Shown: piece after piece, positions 40,665 to 64,000 of the stretch
Layout of the letters: the number at the start of each line of letters is the position of its first letter
Position numbering within the stretch: position 1 is the first letter of the stretch
DNA from: an uncultured Chlorobiaceae bacterium
GTDB taxonomy: Bacteria > Bacteroidota > Ignavibacteria > UBA10030 > SZUA-254
NCBI GenBank assembly: GCA_964523395.1
Contig: CAZFXS010000008.1
Coordinates: 74,693 to 138,692, forward strand
Direction: 5' to 3'
Length of the DNA: 64,000 nucleotides
Translations under genes and position numbers: made by a program
The notes under the pieces: generated by a model
Told to the model about the DNA's origin: nothing
What the model saw: only the letters and a program-made list of their open reading frames with translations
Database searches by the model: none

Positions 40665-40670
40665 GGAGTT

Positions 40671-44540: not shown

Positions 44541-44545
44541 GTTGA

Positions 44546-45064: not shown

Positions 45065-45124
45065 TTATCCTCCCATTTAATTCGATCTAATCCATTTATC
45101 CGTTGTCAATCATGTAATCCGCCG

Positions 45125-46327: not shown

Positions 46328-47074
46328 ATGAAATGTATAGTTTGTGTTAATCACGTTCCCGACACTGAAACAAAAGTAAAAATCGGCAATGACGGCAAAG
46401 TCATTGATAAAGCGGGCGTGAACTTTATGCTCAACCCCTACGACGAGTTTGCCATCGAGGCGGCATTAAAACTCAAGGAAAAATTCGGCGGTGACACACT
46501 CGCGATTTCGCTCGGCGGTGACAGTCATAAGGAAACACTCCGTAAGGCATTGGCAATGGGTGTGGACAAGGCCGTGTTACTTAAAGATGAAACCCCTCGT
46601 GATTCATATTCAATTGCACGCGCCCTTGCAGAAGAACTGAAAACACTTTCCCCCGATTGTGTGCTATTCGGCAAACAGTCGATTGATTATTCTGATGAAC
46701 AACTGCCGGGACTTGTCGCGGAATTCCTGGGATTTCCTTCCGTTTCCGTCGCGGTAAAATTAGATGTTCAGGATGGTAAAGTCATGTGTGAACGCGAAAT
46801 CGAAGGCGGGCATGAAGTCGTAGAAACAAAATTACCTGCGGTTATTTCAGCACAAAAAGGATTGAACGAACCCCGCTATCCATCACTTAAAGGAATCATG
46901 GCGGCGAAAACAAAACCGATTGAAGAGCGCCAGCCGAAAGCGTTCCCTTCAGCGGTGGAAGTTGTTACAATGAACAAACCCCCAGCAAAGCAGGCCGGCA
47001 AAGTGGTGGGAACCGATGCGACAGCCGTACCGGAGTTGGTAAGATTGCTGCATGAAGAAGCAAAGGTGATCTAA
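46328..47074 (+). CDS. etfB: electron transfer flavoprotein subunit beta
   Basis: N-terminus MKCIVCVNHVPDTETKVKI, typical of ETF-beta. Paired with etfA. Confidence 0.85.
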   Translation: MKCIVCVNHVPDTETKVKIGNDGKVIDKAGVNFMLNPYDEFAIEAALKLKEKFGGDTLAISLGGDSHKETLRKALAMGVDKAVLLKDETPRDSYSIARALAEELKTLSPDCVLFGKQSIDYSDEQLPGLVAEFLGFPSVSVAVKLDVQDGKVMCEREIEGGHEVVETKLPAVISAQKGLNEPRYPSLKGIMAAKTKPIEERQPKAFPSAVEVVTMNKPPAKQAGKVVGTDATAVPELVRLLHEEAKVI

Positions 47075-47124
47075 TACATTTACGATTTTCAATTGCCAGT
47101 TTACAATTTTTTATACAAAACTCA

Positions 47125-47160
47125 AATCTTTTTACTTTTGACTTTTTAATTTTTACTTGA
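47125..47160. repeat. AT-rich repeat AATCTTTTTACTTTTGACTTTTTAATTTTTACTTGA (direct copy 2)
   Basis: About 29 of 31 nt identical to 41051-41087. It lies in the etfB-etfA spacer immediately before the etfA ATG. Confidence 0.55.
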
Positions 47161-47162
47161 TT

Positions 47163-48137
47163 ATGAACATACTCGCATTTGCGGAACAACGCGAAGGAAA
47201 ATTTAAGAAATCGGCGTATGAAGTAACCCAGGCGGCGAAGAAAGCTGCCGATCAACTTGGGGGAGAACTTATCACTGTTGTCGTTGGTGATAATATTGCC
47301 GGAATTGCACCTCAACTCGGATCATATGGGGCGACAAAGGTGCTCGCCGTTCAGGATCCCCGCCTTCATTTTTACTCTACATCAGCATACGCTAAAGTTA
47401 TTGCCGACATCGCGAAACAGCATCAGGCGACTGTTCTGTTCTTTCCCGCAAGCCAGATGGGAAAGGATCTTGCGCCTCGCGTCGCGGCAAAACTTGATGC
47501 GGGACTTGCGGCTGATTGTGTCGCGCTGAATGCTTCGGGCGGCGATATTGTTGCTACCCGGCCGGTATATGCCGGAAAAGCATCTGTGGATGTAAAAGTC
47601 GTTACACCAGTAAAAGTATTTACGCTCCGGCCCAATGTGTTTACCGCATCCGCTGCAAATAATTCATCCGCAACGGTTGAATCGGCAAATGTAGTACTAT
47701 CCGATTCTGATTTCTCGGTAAAAGTCACCGGTGTTAAAATCGCCGAAGGGCGCCCCGACGTCACCGAAGCAGGCATTATTGTTTCCGGTGGCAGGGGAAT
47801 GAAAGGTCCCGAACATTTTCATCTCGTGGAAAAACTCGCAGACGTTCTTGGCGGAGCAGTAGGGGCCTCGCGTGCTGTAGTCGACGCAGGCTGGCGTCCT
47901 CACGACGAGCAAGTCGGGCAAACCGGAAAAACTGTTTCTCCCTCTCTGTATATCGCATGCGGAATATCCGGTGCGGTCCAGCATCTTGCGGGAATGTCAT
48001 CTTCTAAGTATATTGTTGCCATCAATAAAGATAAAGACGCACCGATTTTTCAGATAGCGGATTACGGTGTTGTCGGGGATGTGTTTGAAATACTTCCCGC
48101 GCTGACAGACGAACTTAAAAAAACACTTGGTAAATAA
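47163..48137 (+). CDS. etfA: electron transfer flavoprotein subunit alpha
   Basis: FAD-binding C-terminal domain with [19 protein letters not shown]. Confidence 0.85.
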
Positions 48138-48152
48138 TCGGGCAGAGAGATT

Positions 48153-48719
48153 GTGGAAAAAATTCAGGTAGATATTCTGGGACTTTCAACAAGTCCCGCA
48201 AGCGGCGGAGCGTACGCGTTGATTCTGAAGGAGGTCAACGGAAACCGGAGATTACCGATTATCATCGGTGCATTCGAAGCACAATCTATTGCTCTGGAAA
48301 TGGAAGGAATAAAACCTCCCCGGCCGCTCACGCACGACCTGATGAAGAACATCATCGAATCGATGGGTACGGAACTCGCCGAAATAGTTATCAGCGAACT
48401 GCGTGACGGAACATTTTACGCCAAGCTTGCTTTCGACGGCCAGGAAGTCGACGCACGGCCTAGCGATGCGATTGCACTTGCCGTCAGATTTGGAGCGCCT
48501 ATTTTTGTTTCCGACAAAGTGATGGAGGAAGCCGCCTTCCTTCCCGAGAATGAAGAACAGGAAGGCGTCGAAGGAACGGGTCAATCAAAAGGAAAAGAGG
48601 GTAAACTGACAAAAGTTGAAGCCCTCCGCGCACAGTTAAAAGAAGCTATTGAACGGGAGGATTATGAAAAGGCAGCTCATCTGCGGGATGAAATCAGGAA
48701 TATAGAGCAGAAGCACTAA
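48153..48719 (+). CDS. bifunctional nuclease (DUF151/BFN) family protein with C-terminal UVR motif
   Basis: BFN-domain N-terminus (GLSTSPASGGAYALILKE...PIIIGAFEAQSIA) and a UvrB/C-like C-terminal helix (DYEKAAHLRDEI). GTG start. Confidence 0.65.
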   Translation: MEKIQVDILGLSTSPASGGAYALILKEVNGNRRLPIIIGAFEAQSIALEMEGIKPPRPLTHDLMKNIIESMGTELAEIVISELRDGTFYAKLAFDGQEVDARPSDAIALAVRFGAPIFVSDKVMEEAAFLPENEEQEGVEGTGQSKGKEGKLTKVEALRAQLKEAIEREDYEKAAHLRDEIRNIEQKH

Positions 48720-48807
48720 GAGCAGTCAATAGTAACCGGTCAGCGGCCAAGAGGGATCAGCAATTTTCTGACGAATATCTGACATCGAACATCTTTCTAC
48801 TTCAATT

Positions 48808-49518
48808 TCAGTTTACTAAATCCACCATTTCCTTTACCGCATTTTCCAGCCCCACTTCTAGCGCCCGCACAATAACAGCGTGTCCAATACTGACTTCTTC
48901 AATGTCCCGTATCGCAGCGACACGATGGATATTAGTGTAATCAAGGCCGTGCCCCGCATTTACAACTATCCCTAACGATCTTCCGAATGAAGCCATTGCT
49001 TTGATACGTTTCAAATGAAATTCCGATTGCCGGGTACTTTTCGCATCAGCATATTCACCGGTATGGATTTCAATCATATCGGCACCTATCTCTTTTGATG
49101 TTTCCACCTGATCGCGGTCAGGATCGATAAAGAGGCTGACCGGTATACCCTTATTATGAAATTCCGCAATTACTTTTTGAAGATGTTTTTTCAACCTGAC
49201 AACATCCAAACCTCCTTCTGTCGTCAGCTCTTTTCTTTTTTCGGGGACAAGAGTAACCAAATCCGGTTTGATTTTTTTTGCAATCGCAATAATTTCCGGA
49301 GTTGCCGCCATTTCAAGATCAAGTTGAGTGGTAACACTCTTGCGAAGACGTATTACATCCGCATCACGGATATGACGGCGGTCTTCCCGCAAATGGCAGA
49401 CAATGCCGTCGGCGCCGGCTTTTTCCGCAATAAGCGCCGCTTTAACAGGATCAGGAACAATACCGCCACGCGCATTACGCAATGTAGCTATATGATCAAT
49501 ATTGATACAAAGTCTCAA
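48808..49518 (-). CDS. pdxJ: pyridoxine 5'-phosphate synthase
   Basis: N-terminus MRLCINIDHIATLRNARGG and TIM-barrel PdxJ blocks. Length is 236 aa. Confidence 0.9.
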   Translation of the reverse strand: MRLCINIDHIATLRNARGGIVPDPVKAALIAEKAGADGIVCHLREDRRHIRDADVIRLRKSVTTQLDLEMAATPEIIAIAKKIKPDLVTLVPEKRKELTTEGGLDVVRLKKHLQKVIAEFHNKGIPVSLFIDPDRDQVETSKEIGADMIEIHTGEYADAKSTRQSEFHLKRIKAMASFGRSLGIVVNAGHGLDYTNIHRVAAIRDIEEVSIGHAVIVRALEVGLENAVKEMVDLVN

Positions 49519-49522
49519 GAAG

Positions 49523-50446
49523 TTATAACCTTTTGCGTATGATAAACTGCACTCTCTCAGGTTTTCTGCTGATAATTTTTAATTCTTCAGGAATGTTAAG
49601 CATGGGTATAATTGACTCAATTGAATCTTTCGTCAATAACTGATAATTAACAGTTGCCTGAATGCCATCATGTGAGATTGCGGATAGTTTTTCGATCCCG
49701 CCCCGTATGATAATATCAATCTTTGGAGGAGAAAAAATAACCTCCCGATTAGCTGGGACGGCTATTGCTGTTACCGGAACACCTGAAAATATTTTTTCCG
49801 CAAACGGCTGAACATTCATCGAGATATGCGTCAGAGTGCGGTTAATACGTACTGCAAATGTACCGGGTTCTTCGAGCGGAATATCCATGTTCACTGGAAT
49901 TTTCAGGCTCTCAAATTTTTTGTATATCGTCGGCCACTCTGAAATCTGGTCAATTCCGGATGCAGGACCGCCGATGATAACGCTTTCCGGCTGTATTGTT
50001 AAAGGACCAACTTGTCCATATCCTTCATGAAAATCGAACACAATCCGTGAAATAATCTTTACGCGTTTTTCTTTGTACTCCTCCATGGCAAGCACGAGAG
50101 TGTCAGGTTTAATGTCGGTAACCTGAACCGAAACAGGGAGTTTGATATGTTCGAGGACGTCTTTAGAGGTGACGATATATTTTTCCCGGCTTAGCGATGA
50201 GACATCAATATAATATTTGATGTCGGGAGTCAGCGAAAGCGCGGCAAGCATCCATCCGGTCCCGTGAAAGCGAACCATCATCTGTTTTGGAACTGGGTAT
50301 TTTAATGCCATCCCCTCCTTTTCATTTTCAAGCACTATTGGTATACTGCGAAACACCGTATACTCATTCCGCAAATTTACCGATATCCAGGTCACAAGCG
50401 CGAACAGGATCGATGCGATGACGATATGGTAGCGTTTATTTTCCAT
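49523..50446 (-). CDS. hypothetical membrane-anchored protein (possibly YbbR-like)
   Basis: N-terminal TM helix followed by repeated beta-rich segments. The family assignment is tentative. Confidence 0.35.
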   Translation of the reverse strand: MENKRYHIVIASILFALVTWISVNLRNEYTVFRSIPIVLENEKEGMALKYPVPKQMMVRFHGTGWMLAALSLTPDIKYYIDVSSLSREKYIVTSKDVLEHIKLPVSVQVTDIKPDTLVLAMEEYKEKRVKIISRIVFDFHEGYGQVGPLTIQPESVIIGGPASGIDQISEWPTIYKKFESLKIPVNMDIPLEEPGTFAVRINRTLTHISMNVQPFAEKIFSGVPVTAIAVPANREVIFSPPKIDIIIRGGIEKLSAISHDGIQATVNYQLLTKDSIESIIPMLNIPEELKIISRKPERVQFIIRKRL

Positions 50447-50602
50447 ACATAAGGGGCTGAAGCCCCTGTCTTCCTTTGTGTTTCCTTATTCCCCATGCTA
50501 AAGCATGGGGTTATGAAAAACCATGTTGTACTATAACCCTGCTCTTTAGAGTGGGGATCCAACTACAGAACAGTTATGGGCCTTAGCCATGACATGTTAT
50601 AA

Positions 50603-50640
50603 AATAAAAAACTCCATCCGTGATACACAGATGGAGTTTG
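50603..50640 (-). terminator. Rho-independent terminator (bidirectional-type hairpin) downstream of BMC-H gene
   Basis: AACTCCATC-cgtgatacaca-GATGGAGTT, flanked by an A-tract on the plus strand (a T-tract for minus-strand transcripts). Confidence 0.7.
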
Positions 50641-50655
50641 TTTTGTCCAACTACA

Positions 50656-51264
50656 TCATTTCGAAAATTTCGCCTTAATCAACTCCGCAATCAGTTCATC
50701 CCTGTTGGCACGCGAAATTTGCCTGCCAAAAATCGAGAGCCCCTGCACACCCCTTGCGTAATGCCTCAACTGATGGACCGACATCGCTTCAAGTTGCCCG
50801 CGATATGTTTGTTCATCGTTGCTCATTTCCATTGGTTCAGGTGAAGCGGGTGTTTGCTCCTCAGGCTTATTTGCAGTCGGGTCGATGGCAATTACAGCAG
50901 GTTTTTCTCTTTTGGGACGAGCGGGTTGTTTTTTCTCGCGAGCAGAAGTTGAAGGGCTTTCCTCGCGCGGCTTTTCTTTTGTTTGTCCGGGAGGCGGGTA
51001 AATCATAATTTCTGTATCATCGTCGGGGCGCGGGATAACATGGACGGAAACCAGCTCACCCACACGCTGTGCCGCTGCTGCACCGGCATCAACGGCGGCT
51101 CGCACTGCAGCGACATCGCCTTTGATTTTTATGGTCATCAATCCGGCATCGGCGCGTTCGCGGCCTACGAGTTCAATGTCGGCGGCTTTCGTTGCGGCAT
51201 CTGCCGCTTCAATTGCACCGATAAGCCCTTTGGTTTCTATGAGTCCTAATGCGTAATCAAGCAT
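50656..51264 (-). CDS. BMC-H (Pfam00936) microcompartment shell protein with Pro/Glu/Lys-rich linker and C-terminal Rho_N/SAP-like domain
   Basis: N-terminus LGLIETKGLIGAIEAADAATKAA...[32 protein letters not shown] is a canonical BMC domain. The C-terminus LEAMSVHQLRHYARGVQGLSIFGRQISRANRDELIAELI resembles the Rho termination factor N-terminal helix-extended-helix motif. Confidence 0.75.
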   Translation of the reverse strand: MLDYALGLIETKGLIGAIEAADAATKAADIELVGRERADAGLMTIKIKGDVAAVRAAVDAGAAAAQRVGELVSVHVIPRPDDDTEIMIYPPPGQTKEKPREESPSTSAREKKQPARPKREKPAVIAIDPTANKPEEQTPASPEPMEMSNDEQTYRGQLEAMSVHQLRHYARGVQGLSIFGRQISRANRDELIAELIKAKFSK

Positions 51265-51395
51265 GAAAATAATCCTGGAACCTTGTCCTGAGGAGTCCCC
51301 GCGTTAGCAGGAATGACGAAGGACCTGCCCTTGCTGGAGAGGATCCTTCGCCCCGATGAAATCGGGGCTCAGGATGATTCCTGCTAAAGCAGGAA

Positions 51396-51692
51396 TCACT
51401 TGCCTTGGGGACGTTTGGGAAGAATCATCTCCACATCCATGTGCGGACGCGGGATAACATGGACGGAAACCAATTCACCGACACGCTGAGCCGCTGCGGC
51501 TCCGGCATCTGTTGCCGCTTTTACTGCACCGACATCACCGCGCACCATCACCGTGACATATCCGCCGCCGATGACTTCTTTGCCGATGAGCGTAACCTTC
51601 GCGGCTTTTACCATTGCATCGGCTGCTTCGATGGAGCCGACGAGTCCTTTTGTCTCGACCATGCCTAACGCGTCGAGTGAAATATCTGCCAT
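51396..51692 (-). CDS. BMC-H microcompartment shell protein (PduA/EutM/CcmK-like)
   Basis: 98 aa. [25 protein letters not shown]...[35 protein letters not shown] is near-canonical PduA-type sequence. Confidence 0.85.
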
Positions 51693-51824
51693 GTAGAAAC
51701 TCCTTTCCGTCTATTATATATGGCCAAAATACGTGAATCGAATATACTGAATCGGGAGCATATTGTCAATTGCACCGCTTGTTTATGATTTTGGTGAAAA
51801 GCGGTTGATTTCTAATAAAAACAG

Positions 51825-51853
51825 TTGATAGAGACCGGTTTTTTTGGTAATAT
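51825..51853 (+). promoter_or_regulatory. sigma70-like promoter candidate TTGATA-17 bp-TAATAT upstream of mod
   Basis: Read directly from the sequence. It lies about 70 bp upstream of the mod ATG. Confidence 0.35.
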
Positions 51854-51925
51854 GCTCCACACCATACCGTTCAGTTACTTTCTCAAAAGTAAAGCAAAGG
51901 GATATGATTTTTATTAGGAGTGAGG

Positions 51926-53980
51926 ATGAGCTTTAATTCTAAACTAACAGACCTGCTTAAAACTAACCCAAAATTTGTCGACGACAATGATGAATTACTC
52001 ATTGCCGCTGTACAAGACTTTGCATGGAAACTCGACCGGGATTTGATCAAGCTACTCCTTTCAAACGACGACATCAAAGCCAAGTTCTTCACCGAGATAG
52101 AAAAGCACTGGATTTTCAACATTAACACTTTCATTGATTACATCTCACAAAAGAATTTTCTAGACAATTCCTATACGCGTTTCAAAAACCGGATCGGGTT
52201 GACAATTGATGGCAAATATTTGCGCGAACGGGGTGAAGTAGCATTAGTCTGGCCATATAAGGACACAATCCTTGAGGGTGGACAAACAAAGGAAGAAGAA
52301 AAACGCCAGGAAATCTTTTTCAATGAAGTGCTCGCACCAGACGAGATTAACCGCTTGCTTGACCCAAAGGTTTTGACAAGCTTCACACGTTATACCGCTA
52401 AGGGTAAAGAAAACGTTAAGAGCTTCACGCGTGATGAGAACGGCATAATACGCGAAAACTTAATTCTCAAAGGGAACAACCTACTCGCTTTACATACACT
52501 CAAAAGCGAGTTTCGTGGACAAGTCAAATTGATTTATATTGACCCGCCGTACAATCTTGGCAACGATTCATTCGGATATAACGATAGTTTTAATCATTCC
52601 AGTTGGCTTACTTTCATGAAAAGCCGACTTGAAATTGCACATCAACTGTTAGAAAATAATGGGGCAATTTTTATCCAAATTGATTTACATGAATTAGGTT
52701 ACTTACAAGTATTGATGGATGAAATATTTGGCACAGAAAACAGAGTTCAGATTATCGCTGTAAAAACAGCCTCGCCAGCTGGGTTCAAAACAGTTAACCC
52801 TGGACCAATTGATGTTACAGAGTATATTTTGTTTTATACAAAAGATAGGAAATCTTTTAAATTCAGGAGAAATTATGTTGCAGTAGATTACGATGAGAAT
52901 TACGATTTATTCATTGACAACATTGACGACAAACCCGAAAAATGGAAACTCTTTCCATTGAGGGACGTGATTTATAATTTGAATGGTATTGAAATTGGCA
53001 AGACGGCACAGGCCTCATCAACAAATGCAAAAAAGATATGGGGTGAACATTGGAGGATTATTCGTCATCAAGTAATTGCAAAGTTTGCGCTTGAAAATGC
53101 AAATAAAGTTGTAAGTGTGCGGGACCCTCATAAGCCATCAACAAGGCTTAAAGAGGCTTTGCTTCAATCTAAAGAGAATCCTTCAAAAGTTATGGTATTC
53201 AAAAAAAATATTGATGATGATGAAATAAATGAAGACGCCAAAGGTGAAGCTTATTTATACAATGGTGGTGCTCTCTCTTTTTATTCGAACAAAGTCATTA
53301 TGTTGGACGGCGAGAAAACTCCAACTATGCTTTTAACTGATTTCTGGAATGATTTAAGTTGGGATGGTATTGCCAAAGAAGGTGGTGTTAAACTAAAGAA
53401 TGGCAAAAAACCAGAGAAGTTGATAAAAAGAATTATTGAAATGTCAGTTTCAAAAGGAGATGTAGTATTAGACTACCATTTAGGTAGCGGAACAACTGCT
53501 GCTGTAGCCCACAAATTAGGATGTCAGTACATTGGCATTGAACAACTTGATTACGGCGATAATGATAGTGTTAAAAGATTACAAAATGTTATTGAGGGTG
53601 ACACGTCTGGAATATCGAAATCCATTAACTGGCAAGGTGGTGGAAATTTTATTTACTGTGAACTAATGAAATACAACGACGTGTTCATCGATCGCATTCA
53701 GGCGGCAAAGACAAGCAAGGAATTGCTGAAAATCTGGCAAGAGATTGCCGAAGGTTCGTTCCTGAACTGGTATGTCAATCCGGAAATGCCCGATGATGCC
53801 GTGAAGGATTTCGAAGCGTTAGGAAATGAAGAAAACGGCTTTGAAAAACAACAACATTTGCTGGCAAGCCTCCTCGACAAGAACCAGTTATATGTGAATT
53901 ACTCGGAGATTGATGATGCAATGTTCAAGGTCAGCAAAGAAGACAAGGAATTGAACAAGGCGTTCTACGGGGAAATATAA
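51926..53980 (+). CDS. mod: Type III restriction-modification system methyltransferase (Mod) subunit, N6-adenine
   Basis: DPPY motif IV (LIYIDPPYNLG) and an AdoMet-binding region near the C-terminal third (VLDYHLGSGTT). Length is about 685 aa and a Res gene follows immediately. Confidence 0.85.
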   Translation: MSFNSKLTDLLKTNPKFVDDNDELLIAAVQDFAWKLDRDLIKLLLSNDDIKAKFFTEIEKHWIFNINTFIDYISQKNFLDNSYTRFKNRIGLTIDGKYLRERGEVALVWPYKDTILEGGQTKEEEKRQEIFFNEVLAPDEINRLLDPKVLTSFTRYTAKGKENVKSFTRDENGIIRENLILKGNNLLALHTLKSEFRGQVKLIYIDPPYNLGNDSFGYNDSFNHSSWLTFMKSRLEIAHQLLENNGAIFIQIDLHELGYLQVLMDEIFGTENRVQIIAVKTASPAGFKTVNPGPIDVTEYILFYTKDRKSFKFRRNYVAVDYDENYDLFIDNIDDKPEKWKLFPLRDVIYNLNGIEIGKTAQASSTNAKKIWGEHWRIIRHQVIAKFALENANKVVSVRDPHKPSTRLKEALLQSKENPSKVMVFKKNIDDDEINEDAKGEAYLYNGGALSFYSNKVIMLDGEKTPTMLLTDFWNDLSWDGIAKEGGVKLKNGKKPEKLIKRIIEMSVSKGDVVLDYHLGSGTTAAVAHKLGCQYIGIEQLDYGDNDSVKRLQNVIEGDTSGISKSINWQGGGNFIYCELMKYNDVFIDRIQAAKTSKELLKIWQEIAEGSFLNWYVNPEMPDDAVKDFEALGNEENGFEKQQHLLASLLDKNQLYVNYSEIDDAMFKVSKEDKELNKAFYGEI

Positions 53981-56572
53981 ATGCCAGATCAGTTTTTATA
54001 TCAGTCTTTAGACGCTTTCTCACAATTTGGCGGGTTGAAAAAAGAAATTCCCGATTCGATTAAATTGAATCTCAATCCTAAATTCGAGTTGCGCCCTTAT
54101 CAAGTAGAAGCCTTTGCGCGTTTTTTCCATTGCCATAACAATGACTTTCCCAACAAAACATTACCCCTGCATTTCCTCTTCAACATGGCTACGGGAAGCG
54201 GCAAAACACTTATCATGGCAGGACTGATTCTTCATCTTTTTCAGCAAGGCTACCGTAATTTCCTTTTCTTTGTTAATTCCACCAATATCATTGAAAAGAC
54301 CAGGGACAATTTCCTGAACCCGGCTTCCATAAAATACCTTTTCAATTCAGAAATCAATATCGGAAACCGTCATGTTCGCATTACGCCTGTCAACAATTTT
54401 GAAGGGGTAAGCCAAAACGATATTAACATCTGCTTTACCACGATTCAAAAACTCCATTCCGATCTGACGACCGAAAAAGAAAACGCCATTACCTTTGAGG
54501 ATTTCCGCAAGCACAAGGTTGTGCTGATAGCCGATGAAGCACACCATATGAATGTGCAGACAAAGACACAGGAAGAGATGTTTGAAAACTGGGAGAACAC
54601 AGTGCAGAAAATTTTCGAGCAGAACTGGGAAAACCTGTTGCTCGAATTTACCGCAACGCATGATTTTACTTATCCGGCAATGGTAGAAAAATATCGCAAC
54701 AAAGTCATTTTCCGCTACGACCTGCCGGAATTCCGGAATGACCGTTTTTCCAAAGATGTCACGCTGGTATATTCTGACTTTGATTTAAACGAACGGATAC
54801 TTCAGGCGCTGATTCTTAGTCAATACAAACAGGAAGTTGCCGCAAAATATCGAATTAACCTGAAACCGGTTATTCTTTTTAAAGCACAACGGACTATAGC
54901 ACAGTCGCAGGAAAACAAAACCAATTTTCACGCTATCATTGAGGCATTAAACTCAAAGCATATCGCTAAAATCCGCAAATCGGACATTCAAATTATTCAA
55001 CGCGCTTTTCAGTTCTTCGACGAAAACAATATCAGCGATCAGCAGCTTACGGAAAGATTAAGGAGGGAATTTCACAACGATTTTTGCCTGTCAGTCAATG
55101 ACGAAGAAGAAAAGGAAAATTATCAAGTCCTCGTTAATACGCTTGAAGACAAAAACAATCGCATCCGGGCAATTTTTGCAGTACAAAAACTAAATGAAGG
55201 CTGGGACGTTCTAAACCTGTTCGATATTGTTCGCTGTTATGAAACACGCGACGCGCGATATGGAAAACCCGGAAGCACAACGACATCAGAGGCTCAATTG
55301 ATTGGTCGTGGAGCTCGTTATTTTCCGTTTGTTCTTTCTGAAGAGTTTAGCATCAGCGGGATTGAAGCAAACGACCGTTTCCGCCGAAAGTTTGACGGTA
55401 ATCTTGATCACGAGCTGCGGGTTATAGAAGAGTTGCACTATCATAGTATCAACGACAATCGTTATATCCCCGAAATAACACGCGCACTCATTGAGCATGG
55501 TATCATCGATGAGACGGAGATTACAAAAGAAATTAAACTCAAAGAATCTTTCAAGAAAGCGGAGTTTTATAAATATGGCCTGGTCTTCATAAACGATCGG
55601 ATAAAAAAGGATTATCAGAGCGTTCATTCTTTTTCAGACTTAGGTGTAAAGAAAAGGAATTATATACACGTTATCGCCACCGGCCACGGAGGCGCTCAAG
55701 CTGTTTTGGCGAAGAGTAATAAAGGTACGATTACTAAGGAGGAAACCAGAAAAGATATACCTCTCAAACAAATCGAAACTAACATTACACAATCAGCTAT
55801 TGCCAGAAATCCCTTCTATCGATTTAGCACACTCAAGCAATACTTTCCCCACCTCGAATCCATGCGGGAATTTATTTTATCTGAGCAATATCTTGGCGGA
55901 TTGGAAATTACATTTCAAGGCAACGTTTATCAAATTGAAAACAATAAGATTGAAAAGCTAAATGCCGTGCAGGCTTTGCTCGGGGAAATTGAAGCAGGGA
56001 TCCGCCAACAAATTACAGAGTATCAGGGATCAAAAAACTTTCGAAACAACCGTATTCAAGATGTCTTTACAAACAAGTTGCTAAAATTCTCCAAAGACAA
56101 TGAACGCGGTAAAGACGATAGTCAATTTGAACACTTTGTGTCTACAAAAGACTGGTTTGCCTTCAACACAATTTATGGAACTAGTGAAGAAAAGGCATTT
56201 GTTCGTATGCTGGACAGGCATATTGAGAAACTAAAGGCACAATTTCAAAGCATTTACCTTCTCCGTAACGAAGGTCATTTTGCGATATACAATTTCTCCG
56301 ATGGAAGGGCATTTCAACCTGATTTCGTTTTGTTCATACAAGAAAAAAACGGAAAATCGCTTACCTTTCAATTGTTTATCGAGCCAAAAGGAGCTCATCT
56401 CAAAGAGCACGACCGCTGGAAAGAAACATTCCTGAAGGAAATTAAAGAAGAATTCGGGAACAAGATTTTGAAGATCGAAGATAAATCGAAGTATCGTTTG
56501 ATCGGCGTACCATTTTATAACAATGAGGATGAAAATGATTTTAAGGAAAACCTTTGGAAAGCCATTTCCTAA
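53981..56572 (+). CDS. res: Type III restriction endonuclease (Res) subunit, SF2 helicase-like
   Basis: Walker A (MATGSGKT) and a DEAH box (IADEAHH). Length is 863 aa. The start codon lies 1 nt after the mod stop. Confidence 0.85.
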   Translation: MPDQFLYQSLDAFSQFGGLKKEIPDSIKLNLNPKFELRPYQVEAFARFFHCHNNDFPNKTLPLHFLFNMATGSGKTLIMAGLILHLFQQGYRNFLFFVNSTNIIEKTRDNFLNPASIKYLFNSEINIGNRHVRITPVNNFEGVSQNDINICFTTIQKLHSDLTTEKENAITFEDFRKHKVVLIADEAHHMNVQTKTQEEMFENWENTVQKIFEQNWENLLLEFTATHDFTYPAMVEKYRNKVIFRYDLPEFRNDRFSKDVTLVYSDFDLNERILQALILSQYKQEVAAKYRINLKPVILFKAQRTIAQSQENKTNFHAIIEALNSKHIAKIRKSDIQIIQRAFQFFDENNISDQQLTERLRREFHNDFCLSVNDEEEKENYQVLVNTLEDKNNRIRAIFAVQKLNEGWDVLNLFDIVRCYETRDARYGKPGSTTTSEAQLIGRGARYFPFVLSEEFSISGIEANDRFRRKFDGNLDHELRVIEELHYHSINDNRYIPEITRALIEHGIIDETEITKEIKLKESFKKAEFYKYGLVFINDRIKKDYQSVHSFSDLGVKKRNYIHVIATGHGGAQAVLAKSNKGTITKEETRKDIPLKQIETNITQSAIARNPFYRFSTLKQYFPHLESMREFILSEQYLGGLEITFQGNVYQIENNKIEKLNAVQALLGEIEAGIRQQITEYQGSKNFRNNRIQDVFTNKLLKFSKDNERGKDDSQFEHFVSTKDWFAFNTIYGTSEEKAFVRMLDRHIEKLKAQFQSIYLLRNEGHFAIYNFSDGRAFQPDFVLFIQEKNGKSLTFQLFIEPKGAHLKEHDRWKETFLKEIKEEFGNKILKIEDKSKYRLIGVPFYNNEDENDFKENLWKAIS

Positions 56573-56645
56573 ATAAAAACCGGAACTCGGCTCGGAGGTC
56601 ACAACAATGATGCAGTGTAGTGAAATAAAATAGTGCCGTAAAATC

Positions 56646-57284
56646 ATGCCCGGATCTATCCCGCAACCCACATATATTTACAGAATAGCGCATTATTCCA
56701 ATCTCGAGTTTATTCTTCACAATGGTTTATGCTGTCCAAACCATGAAATACGGGATCCAAATTATATGAACATCGGGCATCGAACACTCATTGATTCCCG
56801 TGGATTACGGGAAGTTCCCATTGCACCGTTTGGGGTTCTTAATGATTACGTACCGTTCTACTTCACCAAGAAATCCCCAATGTTATATGTTATTTCGAAA
56901 CATAATGTCCCTGATTATACCGGTGGACAGGGCGAGATTATTTACCTCGTTAGCTCCGCGCAAGATGTTGCACAGGCGAATATTCCCTTTGTCTTTACCA
57001 ACAGACATTCGAAAATTGGGTACGCTGAATTTCGTAACAATTTGAAGGATCTTTCAATAATCGATTGGGATGTGATTAAAGGAGAACGGTGGAATAATAC
57101 ACCAACAGAGTACGATCGCCAAGAGAAGAAGCAAGCTGAATTCCTGGTGCATCAGCGAATGCCGATTGAACTGGTACGGGGCATCGCTTGCTTTAATGAT
57201 AAAATTTTTCATATTATTCAACAAACGCTCTTAGAAAACAACAAAACAATTCCTGTACGCAAAATGCCGAGCTGGTACTATTGA
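56646..57284 (+). CDS. darT: DarT-like ssDNA thymidine ADP-ribosyltransferase toxin (DUF4433)
   Basis: N-terminus IYRIAHYSNLEFILHNGL matches the DUF4433 start. A conserved Glu lies in the QAEFLV block near the C-terminus. A macrodomain gene follows immediately downstream. Confidence 0.65.
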   Translation: MPGSIPQPTYIYRIAHYSNLEFILHNGLCCPNHEIRDPNYMNIGHRTLIDSRGLREVPIAPFGVLNDYVPFYFTKKSPMLYVISKHNVPDYTGGQGEIIYLVSSAQDVAQANIPFVFTNRHSKIGYAEFRNNLKDLSIIDWDVIKGERWNNTPTEYDRQEKKQAEFLVHQRMPIELVRGIACFNDKIFHIIQQTLLENNKTIPVRKMPSWYY

Positions 57285-57288
57285 TCGC

Positions 57289-58344
57289 ATGATAACAACT
57301 ACAAAAGGAAATATCCTTCAAGCCGATACCGAGGCAATCGTTAATACCGTAAATACGGTCGGTGTTATGGGAAAGGGAATTGCTTTACAATTCAAAGAAA
57401 CTTTCCCTGAAAATTACAAATTATATCGTGATGCAGTCGCAAGAAAAGAAATTGCTGTCGGAAAAGTATTTGTAACCGAGACACATCAACTTTCAAACCC
57501 TAAATACATTATTAACTTTCCGACAAAAACTCATTGGAAAGGAAAATCCAAATACGAATTTATTGAGAAGGGTCTTGAAGACTTATCAAGAATCATTACA
57601 GAAAAAAAGATTCACTCTGTATCGGTTCCTCCCTTAGGATGCGGAAACGGCGGACTCCGCTGGGAAAAAGTCCGGAAATTAATTGTCGAGAAATTGCAGG
57701 GATTGAAGAACGTTACGATTGTACTATATGAACCTATTGCCTTGGTTCCTCAACTGAATAAACAAGAAAAACCTGCTGAGCTTACTCAATCCCGTGCATT
57801 AGTTTTAGCATTGATTAAACGCTATACCATTCTTGGATATGAAGTCACATTACTCGAAATTCAAAAGCTGGCATATTTTCTTCAGCGGTTCGGTGAGCAA
57901 TTAAAACTTCAATATGTAGCTCAAGATTTCGGGCCTTATGCATATAATCTAATGTTTTTGCTGCGCAACCTTGAGGGACCATACCTTACCGGGAAGAAGA
58001 AAATTGCCGATACAAAGCCTTTTGACACAATCAACATCCAGCAAGACAAAATCAATGCTGTCGAAACGTATATTCTAAAAAATTGCACATCTGAGCAACA
58101 ACAAAGACTTCAGACAGTGTATGATCTTATCCAAGGATTCGAATCTCCATTGGGAATGGAACTACTCGCAACCGTCGACTGGATTATGAATAAGACTGCA
58201 AATGACCAACGTACTATTGAAAATACCATTGCAGGCGTACATAGTTGGAATGAGCGTAAAAAGAAGCTTATGAAGGCGCAATACATAAAAGCTGCATACG
58301 ATCGGTTAATTACATTCAACAAAACCCTCTACGCTAATAATTAA
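57289..58344 (+). CDS. darG: DarG-like antitoxin (N-terminal macrodomain + C-terminal DarT-binding domain)
   Basis: Macro domain with GNILQADTEAIVNTVNTVGVMGKGIALQF and PPLGCGNGG. Length is about 350 aa. The start lies 4 nt after the darT stop. Confidence 0.7.
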   Translation: MITTTKGNILQADTEAIVNTVNTVGVMGKGIALQFKETFPENYKLYRDAVARKEIAVGKVFVTETHQLSNPKYIINFPTKTHWKGKSKYEFIEKGLEDLSRIITEKKIHSVSVPPLGCGNGGLRWEKVRKLIVEKLQGLKNVTIVLYEPIALVPQLNKQEKPAELTQSRALVLALIKRYTILGYEVTLLEIQKLAYFLQRFGEQLKLQYVAQDFGPYAYNLMFLLRNLEGPYLTGKKKIADTKPFDTINIQQDKINAVETYILKNCTSEQQQRLQTVYDLIQGFESPLGMELLATVDWIMNKTANDQRTIENTIAGVHSWNERKKKLMKAQYIKAAYDRLITFNKTLYANN

Positions 58345-58429
58345 GTAAGTCGCGATCCTCTCGCTTCTTTGCCTTTCTCCCCTCATTTCAATATATTTTT
58401 ATTGGAAGCAATCCAATAAGGGGACAATC

Positions 58430-60970
58430 ATGGCGTTCACCAGGACAGTAAAAATCTGGACTATCATTCTCGGCATTCCGGTATTTCTCCTCCTCGCCGG
58501 AGTCATATTTGCCAAAGTCTATTTTACATCAGAGCGGCTGAAAGCAATGGTGATCCCGCAAATTGTCGATGCCACGCATAGAGATGTTGGACTAAAAGAT
58601 ATTTCCCTCTCTGTCTTCCCCACGATCGCAGTTTCCATGGAAAGCCTGACAATTGCCAACCCCACAACCGGCACGTTTGAATCCGCTCATTTTATTTCCC
58701 TCGGAGAACTGGATGTTAACGTCAAAATATTGCCATTACTTGGCGGTAGCGTTGAGATCAGCGAAATAATCCTGAACAACCCGCACATTGCACTCGAAGT
58801 AACAAAAGACGGATTGAAGAATTATAAATTTGGCAAAGGAGATGAACCCGCTTCTGCTCCGAAAACATCGGCGGAGGGTTCTTCCGGCGAATTACTCATC
58901 GGAAATTTTCAGATACATAACGGCACTATAGAATCCATCAATAAAAAGTTCGATACGAGGATGCTCATCGAGGGCTTTGAGCAGACAACAAGCGCTGAAA
59001 TGCACCAGGGAGAGAACGCGTTAAAAATTCACGGAAGAACTTCCATCTCAACGTTCAGCTATGGCACACTCGGCGCGTGGTACATCAGCGATCAACCGGT
59101 GACGGCAACTGAAGAGCTTTCCTACTCCGCCGGAAAAGATGTTTTAACATTTGACGCGACTGAAATAAAAATAAGAGACTTGCCTCTGAAAGTGACCGGA
59201 ACAATTGCAGATGTAATGCAGGAAACATTGCAGATGGATCTTGCCGTCACCGCACCGAATGTTACCATGCAGCAGCTTCTTTCGTTGATTCCTCCCGAAA
59301 AACTAAAAGCCGCCGAAGGCATGACAAGCACCGGCGATGTCAGTTTCAGCTTGACGATGAAAGGCCCTTCAAGTGAGACCATGAACCCGGAAACGAAAGG
59401 AACATTTACGATATCAAACGGAACTGTCCAATACTCGGGGTTACCAAAGGCAATTACCGGCATTCAGGTCAACGGCATGTTTGAGCAACCATCCGCGCCG
59501 ATCGATAATAAGGATATCGGCACATTCAGCATCAATCAATTTTCGGCGAAGCTCGGAACAAACACCATCGACGGCAAACTGAAGGTGAATAACTTTAATA
59601 ACCCGACTCTTGCTACAACGCTCAATTGCGCAATGAATCTCGACGAGGTAAAAGAATTTTATCCGCTCGAGAAAGGAACAGAGCTTCACGGACTCATGAA
59701 AGCTGCTGTTACAATTAACGGTAAGCCGAAGATTCAGGAGTCTATCAAAGCCGATGGAAATGTCGAGTTTAAGAACGTGACAATGAAAACCGCGACTTCA
59801 CCGAAACCGTTGCAGAATCTTAACGGCAACATTACATTTAACAACCAAGTGGTCGAATCGAAACAGCTTGCAATGAACATCGGCGAGTCTGATATGAATC
59901 TTTCTTTCAGCGTGAAAAATTACCTTGGCATGGTGATGAAAGATTCTGCAAAGGGCAGCAGCAAGCCAACGGCAGCCCTCACACTAAAATCGAAACAGCT
60001 TCGCATAGCCGACCTCATGTCCGAAGAAAGTGCCGCAGCACCCGCATCATCGGGCGCCGGAAAAAGCGCACCACCTGCTGCAGCGGGCATCCTGCCGGGA
60101 ATGAAAGTCAATGCTGATGTTTCCATCGACAAACTCGTCACAGAAAAATTCACATTTACCAATGCCCGCGGTACTGCCGCCATGTCGGACGGCATTATTA
60201 ACCTCAATCAGTTTTCTGTCAATGCCTTTGACGGCACGATCAATACCAAGGGGATGATCGACCTCCGCGATCCGAAGAAAACTCCGTTTGATTTCAATCT
60301 CGATATCAAGAATGTGGAATCAAGTTCTCTCTTACCGAATTTCACATCGTTTGGCAAATATCTCTTTGGGAAATTTTCCACCTCTACAAAATTGAAGGGC
60401 GATCTGAATGATACGCTTGGATTAGACCCACAGTCATTACTCGGCAATGGCACTGTGTTGATTTCGGAAGGAAAGCTCCTCGGATTGCCGATCATGGAGA
60501 AACTTTCCAATCTTATTAACGTGAGCGAATTGAAGTCGGTGAATTTTAAGGATTGGACAAACGGATTCACCATTGAAAACGGCAGACTAAGCGTAAAAGA
60601 CCTTAAAGTGAATGCAGGAGAAACAGGGTTCTTCCTGAACGGTTCACAAGGGCTTGACGGTTCGTTAGATTATTCTCTGAATGTTAAATTGCCGGAATCA
60701 TTTTCCAACCGGATTAAACTTCCCGGTGTCGGCAATCAGTTATTAGAATATTTCAAGGACAAGGATGGAAAGATCAGTTTGAGTTTTGGTGTCGGCGGCG
60801 CAATGGATAACCCGGCGATCAAAATAGATACTAAGTCGCAGGAGGAAATGGCAAAGCAGGCGCTTGAACAAAAGAAACAAAAAGCGATTGATGACGCGAA
60901 GAAGAAACTTGATGATGAGCTGAAGAAAAAGCTTGGCGACGGGCTCAAGAACATTTTAAAGAAACCGTAA
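58430..60970 (+). CDS. AsmA-family outer-membrane assembly protein
   Basis: N-terminal TM anchor. A long beta-rich periplasmic region with AsmA-like organisation. A C-terminal Lys/Glu-rich helix. Confidence 0.65.
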   Translation: MAFTRTVKIWTIILGIPVFLLLAGVIFAKVYFTSERLKAMVIPQIVDATHRDVGLKDISLSVFPTIAVSMESLTIANPTTGTFESAHFISLGELDVNVKILPLLGGSVEISEIILNNPHIALEVTKDGLKNYKFGKGDEPASAPKTSAEGSSGELLIGNFQIHNGTIESINKKFDTRMLIEGFEQTTSAEMHQGENALKIHGRTSISTFSYGTLGAWYISDQPVTATEELSYSAGKDVLTFDATEIKIRDLPLKVTGTIADVMQETLQMDLAVTAPNVTMQQLLSLIPPEKLKAAEGMTSTGDVSFSLTMKGPSSETMNPETKGTFTISNGTVQYSGLPKAITGIQVNGMFEQPSAPIDNKDIGTFSINQFSAKLGTNTIDGKLKVNNFNNPTLATTLNCAMNLDEVKEFYPLEKGTELHGLMKAAVTINGKPKIQESIKADGNVEFKNVTMKTATSPKPLQNLNGNITFNNQVVESKQLAMNIGESDMNLSFSVKNYLGMVMKDSAKGSSKPTAALTLKSKQLRIADLMSEESAAAPASSGAGKSAPPAAAGILPGMKVNADVSIDKLVTEKFTFTNARGTAAMSDGIINLNQFSVNAFDGTINTKGMIDLRDPKKTPFDFNLDIKNVESSSLLPNFTSFGKYLFGKFSTSTKLKGDLNDTLGLDPQSLLGNGTVLISEGKLLGLPIMEKLSNLINVSELKSVNFKDWTNGFTIENGRLSVKDLKVNAGETGFFLNGSQGLDGSLDYSLNVKLPESFSNRIKLPGVGNQLLEYFKDKDGKISLSFGVGGAMDNPAIKIDTKSQEEMAKQALEQKKQKAIDDAKKKLDDELKKKLGDGLKNILKKP

Positions 60971-60973
60971 CGA

Positions 60974-61792
60974 ATGCGGAAACAGCTCGCAGTCCGCATC
61001 AAACCTAAACAATCCCTTGGGCAGAATTTTCTTGTTGACGATAATATTGTCCGCAATATTGTCAGAGACCTTAATTTACAAAAAGACGATATTGTAGTTG
61101 AAATCGGGCCGGGATTAGGTGCGCTTACCAGGGAACTTGCAAAGAACCTTGAGCGATTGATTGTTGTAGAAATTGATCAACGGGCGGTTGAAAAACTCAC
61201 AAAGGAATTTTCGGGATCAAATGTCACTGTTATCCATGGCGATATACTTGATATTCCTTTCGCGAACATCAGCAAGCAATCAGGCCGCAATATCAGGGTG
61301 ATCGGAAATATCCCGTACCACCTGACAAGTCCAATCCTGTTCAAAGTGTTTGATGAGCACGCCTCCGTCCGCGATCTTACCATCATGATTCAGCGTGAGG
61401 TTGCCAAACGTATACTTGCGGAGCCGGGATCAAAAGAGTACGGAATTTTATCCGTGATAACCCGTTGGCACGGCAAGCCAAGGATGTTATTCAGTGTCTC
61501 GCCAAATTGTTTTTATCCGAAACCGAAAGTAACCTCAGCCGTTATACAGATTACTCTTCATAAAAACGCGCCTTATAATGTAAATAATGTTATATTGACG
61601 ACCATCGTCAAGACCGCGTTTGGAAAAAGACGGAAAGTATTGCGGAACAGTTTGACCTATCTTCCATACGACGAGGCAATTGTACGAAAAATAATTTCCG
61701 AACAACGGGAAATGATGGACCGGCGTCCGGAACAGCTTACATTGGAAGAATTCGCAGAACTCGCAGGAATATTTCAACAGAATATGCAATGA
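60974..61792 (+). CDS. rsmA: 16S rRNA (adenine1518/1519-N6)-dimethyltransferase
   Basis: N-terminus LGQNFLVDDNIV, an AdoMet motif (VVEIGPGLGALT) and the NIPYHLTSPIL block. Confidence 0.9.
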   Translation: MRKQLAVRIKPKQSLGQNFLVDDNIVRNIVRDLNLQKDDIVVEIGPGLGALTRELAKNLERLIVVEIDQRAVEKLTKEFSGSNVTVIHGDILDIPFANISKQSGRNIRVIGNIPYHLTSPILFKVFDEHASVRDLTIMIQREVAKRILAEPGSKEYGILSVITRWHGKPRMLFSVSPNCFYPKPKVTSAVIQITLHKNAPYNVNNVILTTIVKTAFGKRRKVLRNSLTYLPYDEAIVRKIISEQREMMDRRPEQLTLEEFAELAGIFQQNMQ

Positions 61793-63225
61793 CAGAGCAG
61801 CAAAACAACAATATTGATCCGATTATCGTCAGTGAAGATCCGGTTCTTACATCGCAGGTTCGCGGCGTAAAAACCATTGAAGTTGATGATGAGTTGATGG
61901 ATGATATCCGGGAACTTGTGCGCGACCGCGCAGGCGCTATCCTGCTTAACATTATCACAGATCTGCATGCCGCTGACATTGCCGAAATAATCGACCGGCT
62001 CGATGCCGAAGACCGCGCGTTTGTCTTCAACCTGCTCGAGCCATCCGTCGGCAGCGCTGTCCTTCTTGAATTGAACGATGATGTCCGCAGCGCGTTACTC
62101 GAACCGCTGACATCGGAAAAAATCACTTCATATGTTGACACACTCGCTTCGGATGATGCCGCGGATCTTGTCGCAGAACTGCCGCCGAGCGTTGCGGATA
62201 CCGTTCTTCGTTCCATGCCTGCAGAAGATTCCTCCGAAGTCAAAGAGCTCATGCAGTATGGCGAGGACACCGCCGGCGGTATCATGGGAACTGAGTTTAT
62301 CTCGGTAAAAATGAACGACACCGTGAACCAGGCAATACGCGAAGTACGTGCAAGCGCGAAACAGGGAATGCAGATTTATAATGTCTTTGTTGTGAATGAA
62401 GAAGGTGTGCTCGTCGGTGTGCTGCCGCTGCAATCACTGGTGCTTCATTCGCCAAACCGCAGAGTGTATAAAATTATGGAAACAGATGTGAAAAGCATCA
62501 GCACTGATGTGGACCAGGAGGAAGTGGCTTCGATGTTCCGTAAGTACGACCTGATTTCGCTTGCGGTTGTTGACAAAGAGAGTAAACTTGTCGGACGCAT
62601 CACTATCGATGATGTTGTGGACGTTATCGAACAGGAGCACAGCGAGGATGTCGCGCGCTTGGTCGGTTCCGACGCGGAAGAACTTGAACGACGCTCACCT
62701 GCGCAAATTGCGTTACTCCGTTTGCCATGGGTACTAATAACGCTTGCGCTTGAATTCATGGCCGGTATTGTTATCCACTATTTCGATTCAACGCTCAGCC
62801 GCGTAATTTTGCTTGCGTCGTTCATGCCTATTATTTCAGCTATCTCGGGAAATACAGGTTTACAGTCAGCCGCGATTATTGTTCGAGCGATGGCAACAGG
62901 GCATGTTTCTCTCGATCGCTGGTGGCAACCTGTGTGGAAACAGCTTCAAACAACTCTCATCATTGGTTCAGTATGTGGAATTGTCATTGGAGTAGTCGGC
63001 GCAATTTGGCAGGGGAAGTGGGAGTTTGGGCTTGTTGTGGGAGTATCAATGCTCACCTCGATCAATATCTCAGGTGTTGTAGGAACTTGCTCACCGATGC
63101 TTTCTAAACGTTTTGGTTTTGATCCTGCACTTACCGCAGGGCCGTTTGAAACGGCATTCCAGGATGTTGTCGGAATATCGATCTTCCTTTCACTGGCAAC
63201 ATTCCTTCTTCACTGGATAGCGTAA
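61789..63225 (+). CDS. mgtE: magnesium transporter MgtE
   Basis: N-domain, tandem CBS domains, and a C-terminal 5-TM MgtE domain (AGIMGTEF...[14 protein letters not shown]). Confidence 0.9.
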
Positions 63226-63235
63226 TCTTCATATC

Positions 63236-64000
63236 ATGACGGCACTCAGAAATTTTTTCCTGAACCTCAGGCCGGTTGATATTCTTATCATTATATTTCT
63301 TCTTCTTCTCCCTGTTATTCATTTGTTCAACGCTTCGTCTGTGATTGGATGGGGAGCATTATTTTTCCTCAACATCATTATTATCATCCTCATTCAACGA
63401 ATCGCAACCGCGTCAATTTCTTCTCAGTCAAATGCGCTACGCATCGTGTACGATTTTTATCCGGTACCGATGATTCTTTTTGTGTTTAAGGAAATTCATG
63501 TTGTCATACAATCAATGGCAAGGGCTGACCTCGACAATATTTTTATCGCAATTGACCGCGCTATGTTTGGCGTCGACCCGACTGTCTGGATGATGCAGTT
63601 TACAACTCCCGTGCTGACGGAGATTCTCCAGCTTGCATACGTCAGTTATTACTTTCTCATGCTCTTGCTGGGAATCGAACTTTACAGAAAGAAGCAACAC
63701 GACCAGTTTTCTCTTGTGCTCTTTGCCATCGTATATGGATTTTTTCTTTCATATATCGGCTACATCCTTTTTCCCGGAGTGGGTCCCCGTTTTACGCTCC
63801 ACAATTTTACCACACTGAATGATGAATTACCCGGTCTTTGGTTATCAAACGCAATCAGAGATTTTATCAACGCCGGAGAGTCCATACCCAAAGGCGTTGA
63901 AAACGCAATGGCCCTGGCTCAGCGAGACGCGTTCCCGAGCGGCCACACACAAATGACGCTTATTGTTATGTATTACGCACAAAAGTTTTCCATCCGGTCG
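63236..64000 (+). CDS. PAP2-superfamily membrane phosphatase/transferase (3'-truncated at window edge)
   Basis: Multi-TM protein with PAP2 motif 2 (FPSGHT) near the window end. The frame is open to the last base. Confidence 0.55.
   Translation, partial: MTALRNFFLNLRPVDILIIIFLLLLPVIHLFNASSVIGWGALFFLNIIIIILIQRIATASISSQSNALRIVYDFYPVPMILFVFKEIHVVIQSMARADLDNIFIAIDRAMFGVDPTVWMMQFTTPVLTEILQLAYVSYYFLMLLLGIELYRKKQHDQFSLVLFAIVYGFFLSYIGYILFPGVGPRFTLHNFTTLNDELPGLWLSNAIRDFINAGESIPKGVENAMALAQRDAFPSGHTQMTLIVMYYAQKFSIRS

Follow-up and report, generated by a model that had tools for sequence, protein, structure and literature searches.

DarTG toxin-antitoxin pairs have been known since 2016 to be embedded in Type I restriction-modification (R-M) operons, and possible cross-talk between the two was raised at the time (PMC5179494). 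The biochemistry of DarTG has been described (PMC5179494, PMC9967889, PMC11543638). A macrodomain partner defines DarTG2, which modifies thymidine, and a NADAR partner defines DarTG1 (PMC11543638). In 2025 the linkage to Type I R-M was shown to be functional: an island with Type I R-M and DarTG2 protects E. coli from phages (PMC12255303). Here we describe a locus in which a Type III R-M gene pair, mod and res, is followed by the genes of a DarTG pair, darT and darG. It lies in a 64-kb stretch of DNA (the window) from an uncultured Chlorobiaceae bacterium of the Ignavibacteria (GenBank assembly GCA_964523395.1, contig CAZFXS010000008.1, positions 74,693 to 138,692 of the forward strand). We put at about 85% the probability that the four genes are a horizontally acquired defence island with two systems, Type III R-M and DarTG2, acting as independent layers. 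This analysis shows what the four genes are, that their catalytic residues are intact, that the block was inserted, and that its two modules differ in ancestry. All coordinates are positions in the window, in which the island spans approximately 51865-58372 (about 6.5 kb).

The island RptR-HsdM-HsdS-DarT-DarG-HsdR-M48 of enteropathogenic Escherichia coli (EPEC) provides the main comparison (PMC12255303). Both loci contain DarTG2 tightly linked to R-M genes on a horizontally acquired island, and in both the pair is apparently co-transcribed with the R-M genes. The R-M system of the window is Type III, whereas that of the EPEC island, and of the pattern described earlier (PMC5179494), is Type I. 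DarTG trails res in the window but lies between hsdS and hsdR in EPEC, and the window has no RptR-like regulator gene, M48 peptidase or flanking insertion sequence (IS) elements. We found no paper describing a pairing of DarTG with a Type III system. The locus is an ordinary defence island and not a new kind of system, and its Type III partner is a minor extension of the known pattern.

The island proteins were searched against the Pfam, PADLOC and NCBIfam profiles, and their structural relatives were identified by comparison with the PDB. Ninety-six loci (L001-L096) were fetched for comparison, 80 of which are metagenome loci with Res relatives (63-82% identity). A preliminary description of this DNA had proposed four consecutive plus-strand open reading frames (ORFs), a Type III R-M pair and then a macrodomain-type DarTG. 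All four are present and intact (Table 1). In Pfam they match N6_N4_Mtase, ResIII, DarT (DUF4433) and Macro, and PADLOC calls them MTase_III, REase_III, DarT and DarG. The motifs that had been quoted for them were all located, DPPY at residue 206 of Mod, MATGSGKT at 72 and IADEAHH at 185 of Res, and QAEFLV at 163 of DarT. The third protein does contain DUF4433 and the fourth a macrodomain, and the gene order is not one that is conserved among relatives. The core of the preliminary description is supported on every testable point.

Table 1. Genes of the island, the spacer between its two modules, and features at its borders (positions in the window).
Feature	Position	Strand	Description
mod	51926-53980	+	Type III N6-adenine DNA methyltransferase, 684 aa
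res	53981-56572	+	Type III restriction subunit, 863 aa; superfamily 2 (SF2) helicase-like ATPase and C-terminal PD-ExK nuclease
res-darT spacer	56573-56645	+	73 nt
darT	56646-57284	+	Predicted single-stranded DNA (ssDNA) ADP-ribosyltransferase toxin, 212 aa, DarT2 (macrodomain-associated) type
darG	57289-58344	+	Antitoxin, 351 aa; predicted N-terminal macrodomain ADP-ribosyl glycohydrolase and C-terminal DarT-binding domain
Left junction zone	51770-51864		Fast-evolving, probable host spacer; ends in conserved ATGCTCC (51852-51858)
Right junction in asmA promoter	58369-58397	+	TTGCCT-17-TATATT in the window
BMC-H promoter (host landmark, outside the island)	51741-51769	-	TTGACA-17-TATATT, 11/12 consensus

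The first two genes resemble those of the Type III systems EcoP15I and EcoP1I, with which they share the order mod then res and the abutting of the two genes. The last base of the mod stop codon is 53980 and res begins with its ATG at 53981; mod likewise comes immediately before res in the majority of the 80 related loci. The likely start of mod is the ATG at 51926, which has AGGAG upstream (51916-51920); the mechanical ORF start is a GTG at 51920. An exact match to the whole 684-residue product is on record in a protein collection. Mod matches N6_N4_Mtase (PF01555, 4e-43) and TypeIII_RM_meth (PF12564, 5e-22) in Pfam and MTase_III (5e-190) in PADLOC, and its adenine-methyltransferase matches in NCBIfam are weak and all below the cut-off. 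The DPPY motif (motif IV, 206) precedes GSG (motif I, 518), with the recognition domain separating them, which is the order of beta-class enzymes. A beta-class N6-adenine Mod with a TypeIII_RM_meth domain at its N-terminus is also a feature shared with EcoP15I and EcoP1I, and the relatives of Mod in the PDB are EcoP15I Mod itself (4ZCF, 7.5e-25) and 6K0W. A repeat scan found no simple-repeat tracts of the phase-variation type in mod.

Res matches ResIII in Pfam (5e-32) and REase_III in PADLOC (1e-140), the latter over residues 21-858, nearly the full length of the protein; it has no match in NCBIfam. The helicase motifs are present as Walker A (GSGKT, residue 72), DEAH (185), motif III (TAT, 224) and motif VI (QxxGRxxR, here QLIGRGAR, 439), and they are followed by a PD-(D/E)xK nuclease motif (PD...EPK, 780-803). 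The SF2 helicase motifs and the C-terminal PD-ExK nuclease motif are common to this protein and the EcoP15I and EcoP1I enzymes. The window Res is nevertheless too diverged from EcoP15I Res for phmmer to match the two, and belongs to a very conserved, widespread environmental Res clade. No PDB entry was matched by phmmer, and the membership of Res in the family rests on the hidden Markov model (HMM) libraries and the motifs. Judged from these profiles and motifs, the first module is a canonical Type III R-M system.

The gap between the R-M genes and DarTG is 73 nt, one less than the 74 bp given for it before. In this spacer a scan of the plus strand found no terminator, and no promoter is predicted. 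The spacer has no stable structure (folding z-score +0.22), and no similar sequence occurs in any of the 96 fetched loci. A near-tandem 13-nt duplication reported by Tandem Repeats Finder (TAAAATAGTGCCG / TAAAATCATGCCC, 56626-56650) overlaps the darT start codon.

DarT matches the Pfam DarT/DUF4433 domain (PF14487, 3e-56) over the full length of the profile (positions 1-201/201), DarT in PADLOC (6e-67) and the toxin_DarT equivalog in NCBIfam, where it scores 232 bits against a cut-off of 150 bits. It also matches the structure of Thermus DarT (7OMV, 3e-41), to which it is approximately 40% identical. Once a one-residue offset in the PDB numbering is corrected, R52, Y72, M79, H121 and E165 of the window protein align with Thermus R51, Y71, M78, H119 and E160, and the catalytic residues, whose roles have been described for the Thermus enzyme (PMC9967889; also PMC5179494), are thus retained. 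E165 is the glutamate of QAEFLV, and the corresponding Thermus E160 is the residue replaced by alanine in the crystallised mutant. Other positions differ from Thermus DarT. H13 and T15 are Arg and Ala in the window protein, and H65 is Asn; this last position is occupied by Ser in the M. tuberculosis toxin, which is active.

The start of darG lies 4 nt past the darT stop. DarG matches Macro in Pfam (2e-25), and it covers end to end both the PADLOC DarG model (3e-124) and the NCBIfam antitoxin_DarG equivalog (427 bits, cut-off 250 bits). Its macrodomain matches those of M. tuberculosis (5M3I, 6e-50) and T. aquaticus (5M31, 8e-49), and residues 186-341 match the C-terminal domain of M. tuberculosis DarG (7YK3_B, 3.9e-16), the domain that binds DarT. 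The catalytic lysine K80 is present in PTK80THW, as are N22, K29 and a glycine loop, GCGNGGL, at 117-123 (residues as in PMC5179494). The nearest relatives are 56-69% identical for DarT and 56-64% for DarG.

Because the adjacent antitoxin is a macrodomain protein and not a NADAR protein, the window pair is assigned to DarTG2. The order of darT followed by darG is the same in the DarTG2 pairs of Thermus aquaticus and Thermus sp. 2.9, of M. tuberculosis (Rv0059-Rv0060) and of EPEC. The macrodomain lysine K80 and the M. tuberculosis-like DarT-binding C-terminal domain are likewise shared with known DarTG2 systems, in contrast to the upstream partner, which in the window is a Type III res and not Type I genes. 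Pfam, PADLOC, NCBIfam and the solved structures all agree with the DarT-like and DarG-like assignments made earlier, and by homology the second module is a canonical toxin-antitoxin pair of the DarTG2 kind.

From what is established for the two families we infer the enzymatic activity of the proteins, their anti-phage function, their co-transcription and their layering. Mod would methylate adenine N6 on one strand of a short asymmetric site, and the Mod-Res complex would cut unmethylated incoming DNA by means of the helicase-like ATPase and the PD-ExK nuclease of Res. As in other Type III systems, cleavage would depend on ATP and require a pair of unmethylated sites in inverse orientation, and the host genome would be hemimethylated. 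DarT is expected to use NAD+ to ADP-ribosylate thymidines in ssDNA, which would block replication. DarG would restrain DarT in two ways, the macrodomain (with K80) removing the modification and the C-terminal domain binding the toxin. Infection may upset the balance between DarT and DarG, whereupon DarT would modify phage DNA and bring about abortive infection. Restriction would then be the first layer and abortive infection the back-up. The two modules are probably transcribed together, which is plausible because neither a terminator nor a predicted promoter lies between res and darT.

The close spacing of the four genes had suggested a cassette acquired as a unit. The data do not establish this: the nearest relatives of the two modules differ, the modules are linked nowhere else in the data reached, and the combination of Type III R-M with DarTG in the window is the sole instance there. 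Res relatives with 72-82% identity occur in many metagenomes, on contigs that carry the labels Chloroflexota, Smithellaceae, Saprospiraceae and Nitrospinae. Host core proteins are 55-73% identical to those of an Ignavibacteria metagenome-assembled genome (MAG, L001), which is below the identities of Res to other phyla. No DarT is present in any of the 80 Res-relative loci, 56 of which have at least 700 nt of sequence after res. Almost all of the 80 have mod adjoining res, with a variable central recognition region in mod. At the nucleotide level the island is homologous to other mod-res loci over 51931-56554 only, and its non-coding parts have no match in the 96 fetched loci.

The genes that follow res in the related loci are mixed, and include housekeeping genes, an Mrr-like nuclease, an AAA_15 ATPase, HNH-repeat and nucleotidyltransferase genes, and integrases. 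The notion that res is usually trailed by a toxin-antitoxin or abortive-infection gene in this Res family was rejected, as the downstream genes are heterogeneous. DarTG relatives, for their part, occur behind several partners. One lies behind the C-terminus of a Type I HsdR (L091, DarT 69% identical), another behind a Type IIG MmeI/Eco57I-like enzyme with a 2-bp gap to darT (L005, an Ignavibacteria MAG like L001), and two more lie behind Schlafen/AlbA_2 proteins (L002, L003). Relatives with an empty site lack both modules, which may have reached this site in one event or in two. In the loci compared, the four genes do not move as one cassette. Since the Res relatives lack DarT, the DarTG relatives stand behind other partners and the nucleotide homology covers mod and res only, the two modules have, on this comparative evidence, separate histories.

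Two of the fetched loci (L069:5686-6996, L077:750-1928) encode a 392-residue fusion of a DarT domain (PF14487, 1e-48) and a macrodomain with the PTKKHW lysine. The fusion has no DarG C-terminal domain. It lies between mod (and a DUF3800 gene) and res of the same Type III family as in the window, ending approximately 10 bp before res, and is a second, independent link of this Res clade with DarT/macro modules. In two other loci (L089:2-431, L090:3-435) the closest relative of DarG (64% identical) is intact and the adjacent darT is split over two frames, probably a decayed toxin beside a retained antitoxin.

A frameshifted darT next to an intact darG is a decay pattern typical of selfish toxin-antitoxin pairs. 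DarTG might therefore serve mainly to stabilise the island or its R-M genes by post-segregational killing, and contribute little to phage defence in this host. An addiction role of this kind was proposed by the discoverers of DarTG for the insertion into Type I operons (PMC5179494), and the tight linkage of darT and darG, 4 nt apart, would suit it. However, DarTG1 and DarTG2 both defend robustly against phage when tested (PMC12255303), and the addiction and defence roles are mutually compatible. The locus is chromosomal, and nothing there points to a mobile element for the pair to stabilise. We regard addiction as the main role of the pair as unlikely.

DarTG could also be a guard wired to the restriction enzyme, which fires when phage anti-restriction factors disable the R-M system. 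Such coupling might take the form of guarding, as by the anticodon nuclease PrrC with EcoprrI, of cross-talk between ADP-ribosylation and methylation on DNA, or of co-regulation. In a generalised form, DarT/macrodomain modules would dock preferentially by the restriction-subunit genes of any R-M type because they are wired to them. In independent lineages, DarT modules do stand directly after restriction genes or within them, and three R-M types are represented. The window has a Type III system, from which DarT is separated by 73 nt that contain no terminator; in L005 the enzyme is Type IIG and the gap 2 bp, and in L091 the partner is a Type I HsdR. The DarT-Macro fusion of L069 and L077 adds a case between a Type III mod and res, and the Type I linkage, with its possible cross-talk, had already been pointed out (PMC5179494). 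This recurrent docking makes a coupling of DarT to restriction suggestive. Against it, DarTG pairs are self-contained as toxin-antitoxin or defence systems without any R-M (PMC5179494; PMC12255303), the close DarTG relatives in L002 and L003 trail genes that are not R-M genes, and 80 of 80 close Res-relative loci have no DarTG. Clustering of defence genes is expected even when they are not functionally coupled. We consider coupling at this locus very improbable, and the same low probability applies to the generalised form.

The horizontal acquisition of the two-system island is best seen in a comparison of the window with five related loci (L092, a JGI contig, together with L001, L096, L093 and L095). 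The island is flanked by two minus-strand shell proteins of the bacterial microcompartment (BMC) type on one side and by an AsmA-family protein on the other (Pfam). In relatives without the four genes BMC-H and asmA are direct neighbours, the outcome that the preliminary description had anticipated for an insertion; the distance between them is 362 bp in L092, 451 bp in L001 and 388 bp in L096. L092 is 90.3% identical to the window in nucleotides over 45144-51769 and 90.4% over 58375-64000, and 231 bp of unrelated sequence replaces window positions 51770-58374. Its AsmA is 93% identical to that of the window, and the empty slots span AsmA identities from 93% to 55%. In L093 and L095 the slot between the same landmarks is filled by other cargo. 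The four genes have indeed been inserted, into a variable intergenic slot that the BMC-H and asmA promoters, facing in opposite directions, delimit on an Ignavibacteria-like chromosome. We infer that the replacement took place via recombination through the conserved flanks. A rival reading, in which the site originally had the four genes and the relatives lost them by deletion, is highly improbable: ancestry can be judged from five related loci only, and the slot is also occupied in L093 and L095, by different genes, but empty slots at such different distances (AsmA 93% and 55%) would need repeated precise deletions, the nearest relatives of the island proteins are in unrelated phyla and are more similar than host core proteins are among Ignavibacteria, and GC content is lower throughout the block.

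The left limit of flank homology is marked by the BMC-H promoter, which is nearly identical in all six loci (the window included), and nucleotide homology with L092 and L001 ends at 51769. A 13-mer at 51852-51864 is common to the window and L092, and 5 of 500 shuffles scored as high. Apart from this 13-mer, the region before mod gave no significant local alignment with the spacers of the relatives. The stretch 51770-51864 is probably the host's own spacer, which places the left junction at approximately 51865 and leaves about 61 nt ahead of the mod start that came with the island. On the right homology resumes at 58375 (BLAST breakpoint), and the end of the insertion therefore falls within the asmA promoter, in its -35 hexamer (TTGCCT, 58369-58374), with the junction at 58372-58374. 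In L092, L001, L093 and L095 this promoter reads TTGATA-17-TATATT. A scan found no terminator after darG, and asmA, whose -35 has changed from TTGATA to TTGCCT, may depend partly on read-through from the island. The junctions carry no terminal inverted repeats, and the repeats listed there are short, chance-level pairs.

The palindrome-rich spacer between the BMC genes (51265-51395), which had been put forward as the insertion boundary, is a host feature that lies within the block about 90% identical to L092. This 131-nt spacer (minus strand) is predicted to fold with -60 kcal/mol and a z-score of -5.8, and none of 200 shuffles was as stable. It has no match in Rfam, and the window as a whole contains no tRNA and no Rfam family.

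Several points weigh against the reading of the locus as an acquired, two-system island. Neither an integrase, a transposase or a tRNA nor flanking direct repeats were found at the island. The mod promoter proposed earlier (TTGATA-17-TAATAT, 51825-51853) has its hexamers in place, with 9/12 consensus matches and a TG preceding the -10, but such matches are at chance level, 18 being found in the region against 17.5 +/- 4.2 in shuffles. Its candidate -10 overlaps ATGCTCC, a host motif that every relative retains. That DarT acts on thymidine, moreover, is a prediction drawn from the macrodomain of its partner and from the resemblance to the Thermus toxin. As for composition, the GC content of the four island genes is 0.38-0.41, compared with a mean of 0.473 +/- 0.040 for the 45 other ORFs of the window, and their GC z-scores at third codon positions (GC3) are -0.8 to -1.9. 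The AT-richness that had been remarked on is visible as a drop in GC across the window but is modest at the level of genes, where four other ORFs are equally AT-rich. Synonymous-codon usage of the island genes is not deviant, and the deviation that the preliminary description proposed to look for is absent. Composition alone would not prove a foreign origin, because codon usage is normal and the GC shift modest; with so modest a signal, it is synteny that carries the claim of insertion.

The four equally AT-rich ORFs (14628-16847, 28011-29528, 32202-32879 and 40536-41033) have GC contents of 0.35-0.41 and GC3 z-scores of -1.7 to -2.6. Two of the four have deviant codon usage, and the product of ORF 14628-16847 has weak similarity to a Por_Secre_tail protein. 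These ORFs, too, may have been acquired. Compared with L092, the window has a further small insertion at 44541-45143, where its 603 bp correspond to 109 bp in L092. It carries a 140-residue ORF (44642-45064, minus strand) of the PDDEXK_3 nuclease family (3e-35).

An inverted repeat, GGAGCAT...ATGCTCC, is present at 51755-51769 and 51844-51858 of the window and is kept in 6/6 loci. One arm lies in the spacer of the BMC-H promoter and the other 55-97 nt upstream, and the sequence between them is unconserved. A regulator of the BMC shell genes may use this repeat as its operator.

The cargo of the slot in L093 (3852-9800) and L095 (4948-9866), whose AsmA proteins are 67-68% identical to that of the window, is a divergent BMC-associated metabolic operon. 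It encodes an aminotransferase, an ATP-dependent phosphoenolpyruvate carboxykinase (PEPCK), an RnfC/Complex1_51K-like protein and a 183-residue BMC protein, and L093 has a Por_Secre_tail protein in addition. No homologues of the aminotransferase, PEPCK, RnfC-like protein or 183-residue BMC protein are present in the 64-kb window. The two shell genes may be all that the window strain has kept of a microcompartment locus that was formerly larger.

Both systems belong to textbook families, and the locus has little bearing on their mechanism. Its value lies first in being a cleanly delimited and apparently intact combination of DarTG2 and Type III R-M from a group that has been little studied, the Ignavibacteria, and in having an exact empty site available for comparison. 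It also reveals a variable chromosomal slot between two conserved divergent promoters, with cargo that differs among relatives. Were DarTG and restriction coupled after all, the window pair would be one instance of a general architecture of R-M with an ADP-ribosylation back-up, and not a chance neighbourhood. For the family, the locus supports the view of the DarTG pair as a portable two-gene module that lands behind several R-M types, beyond the published Type I.

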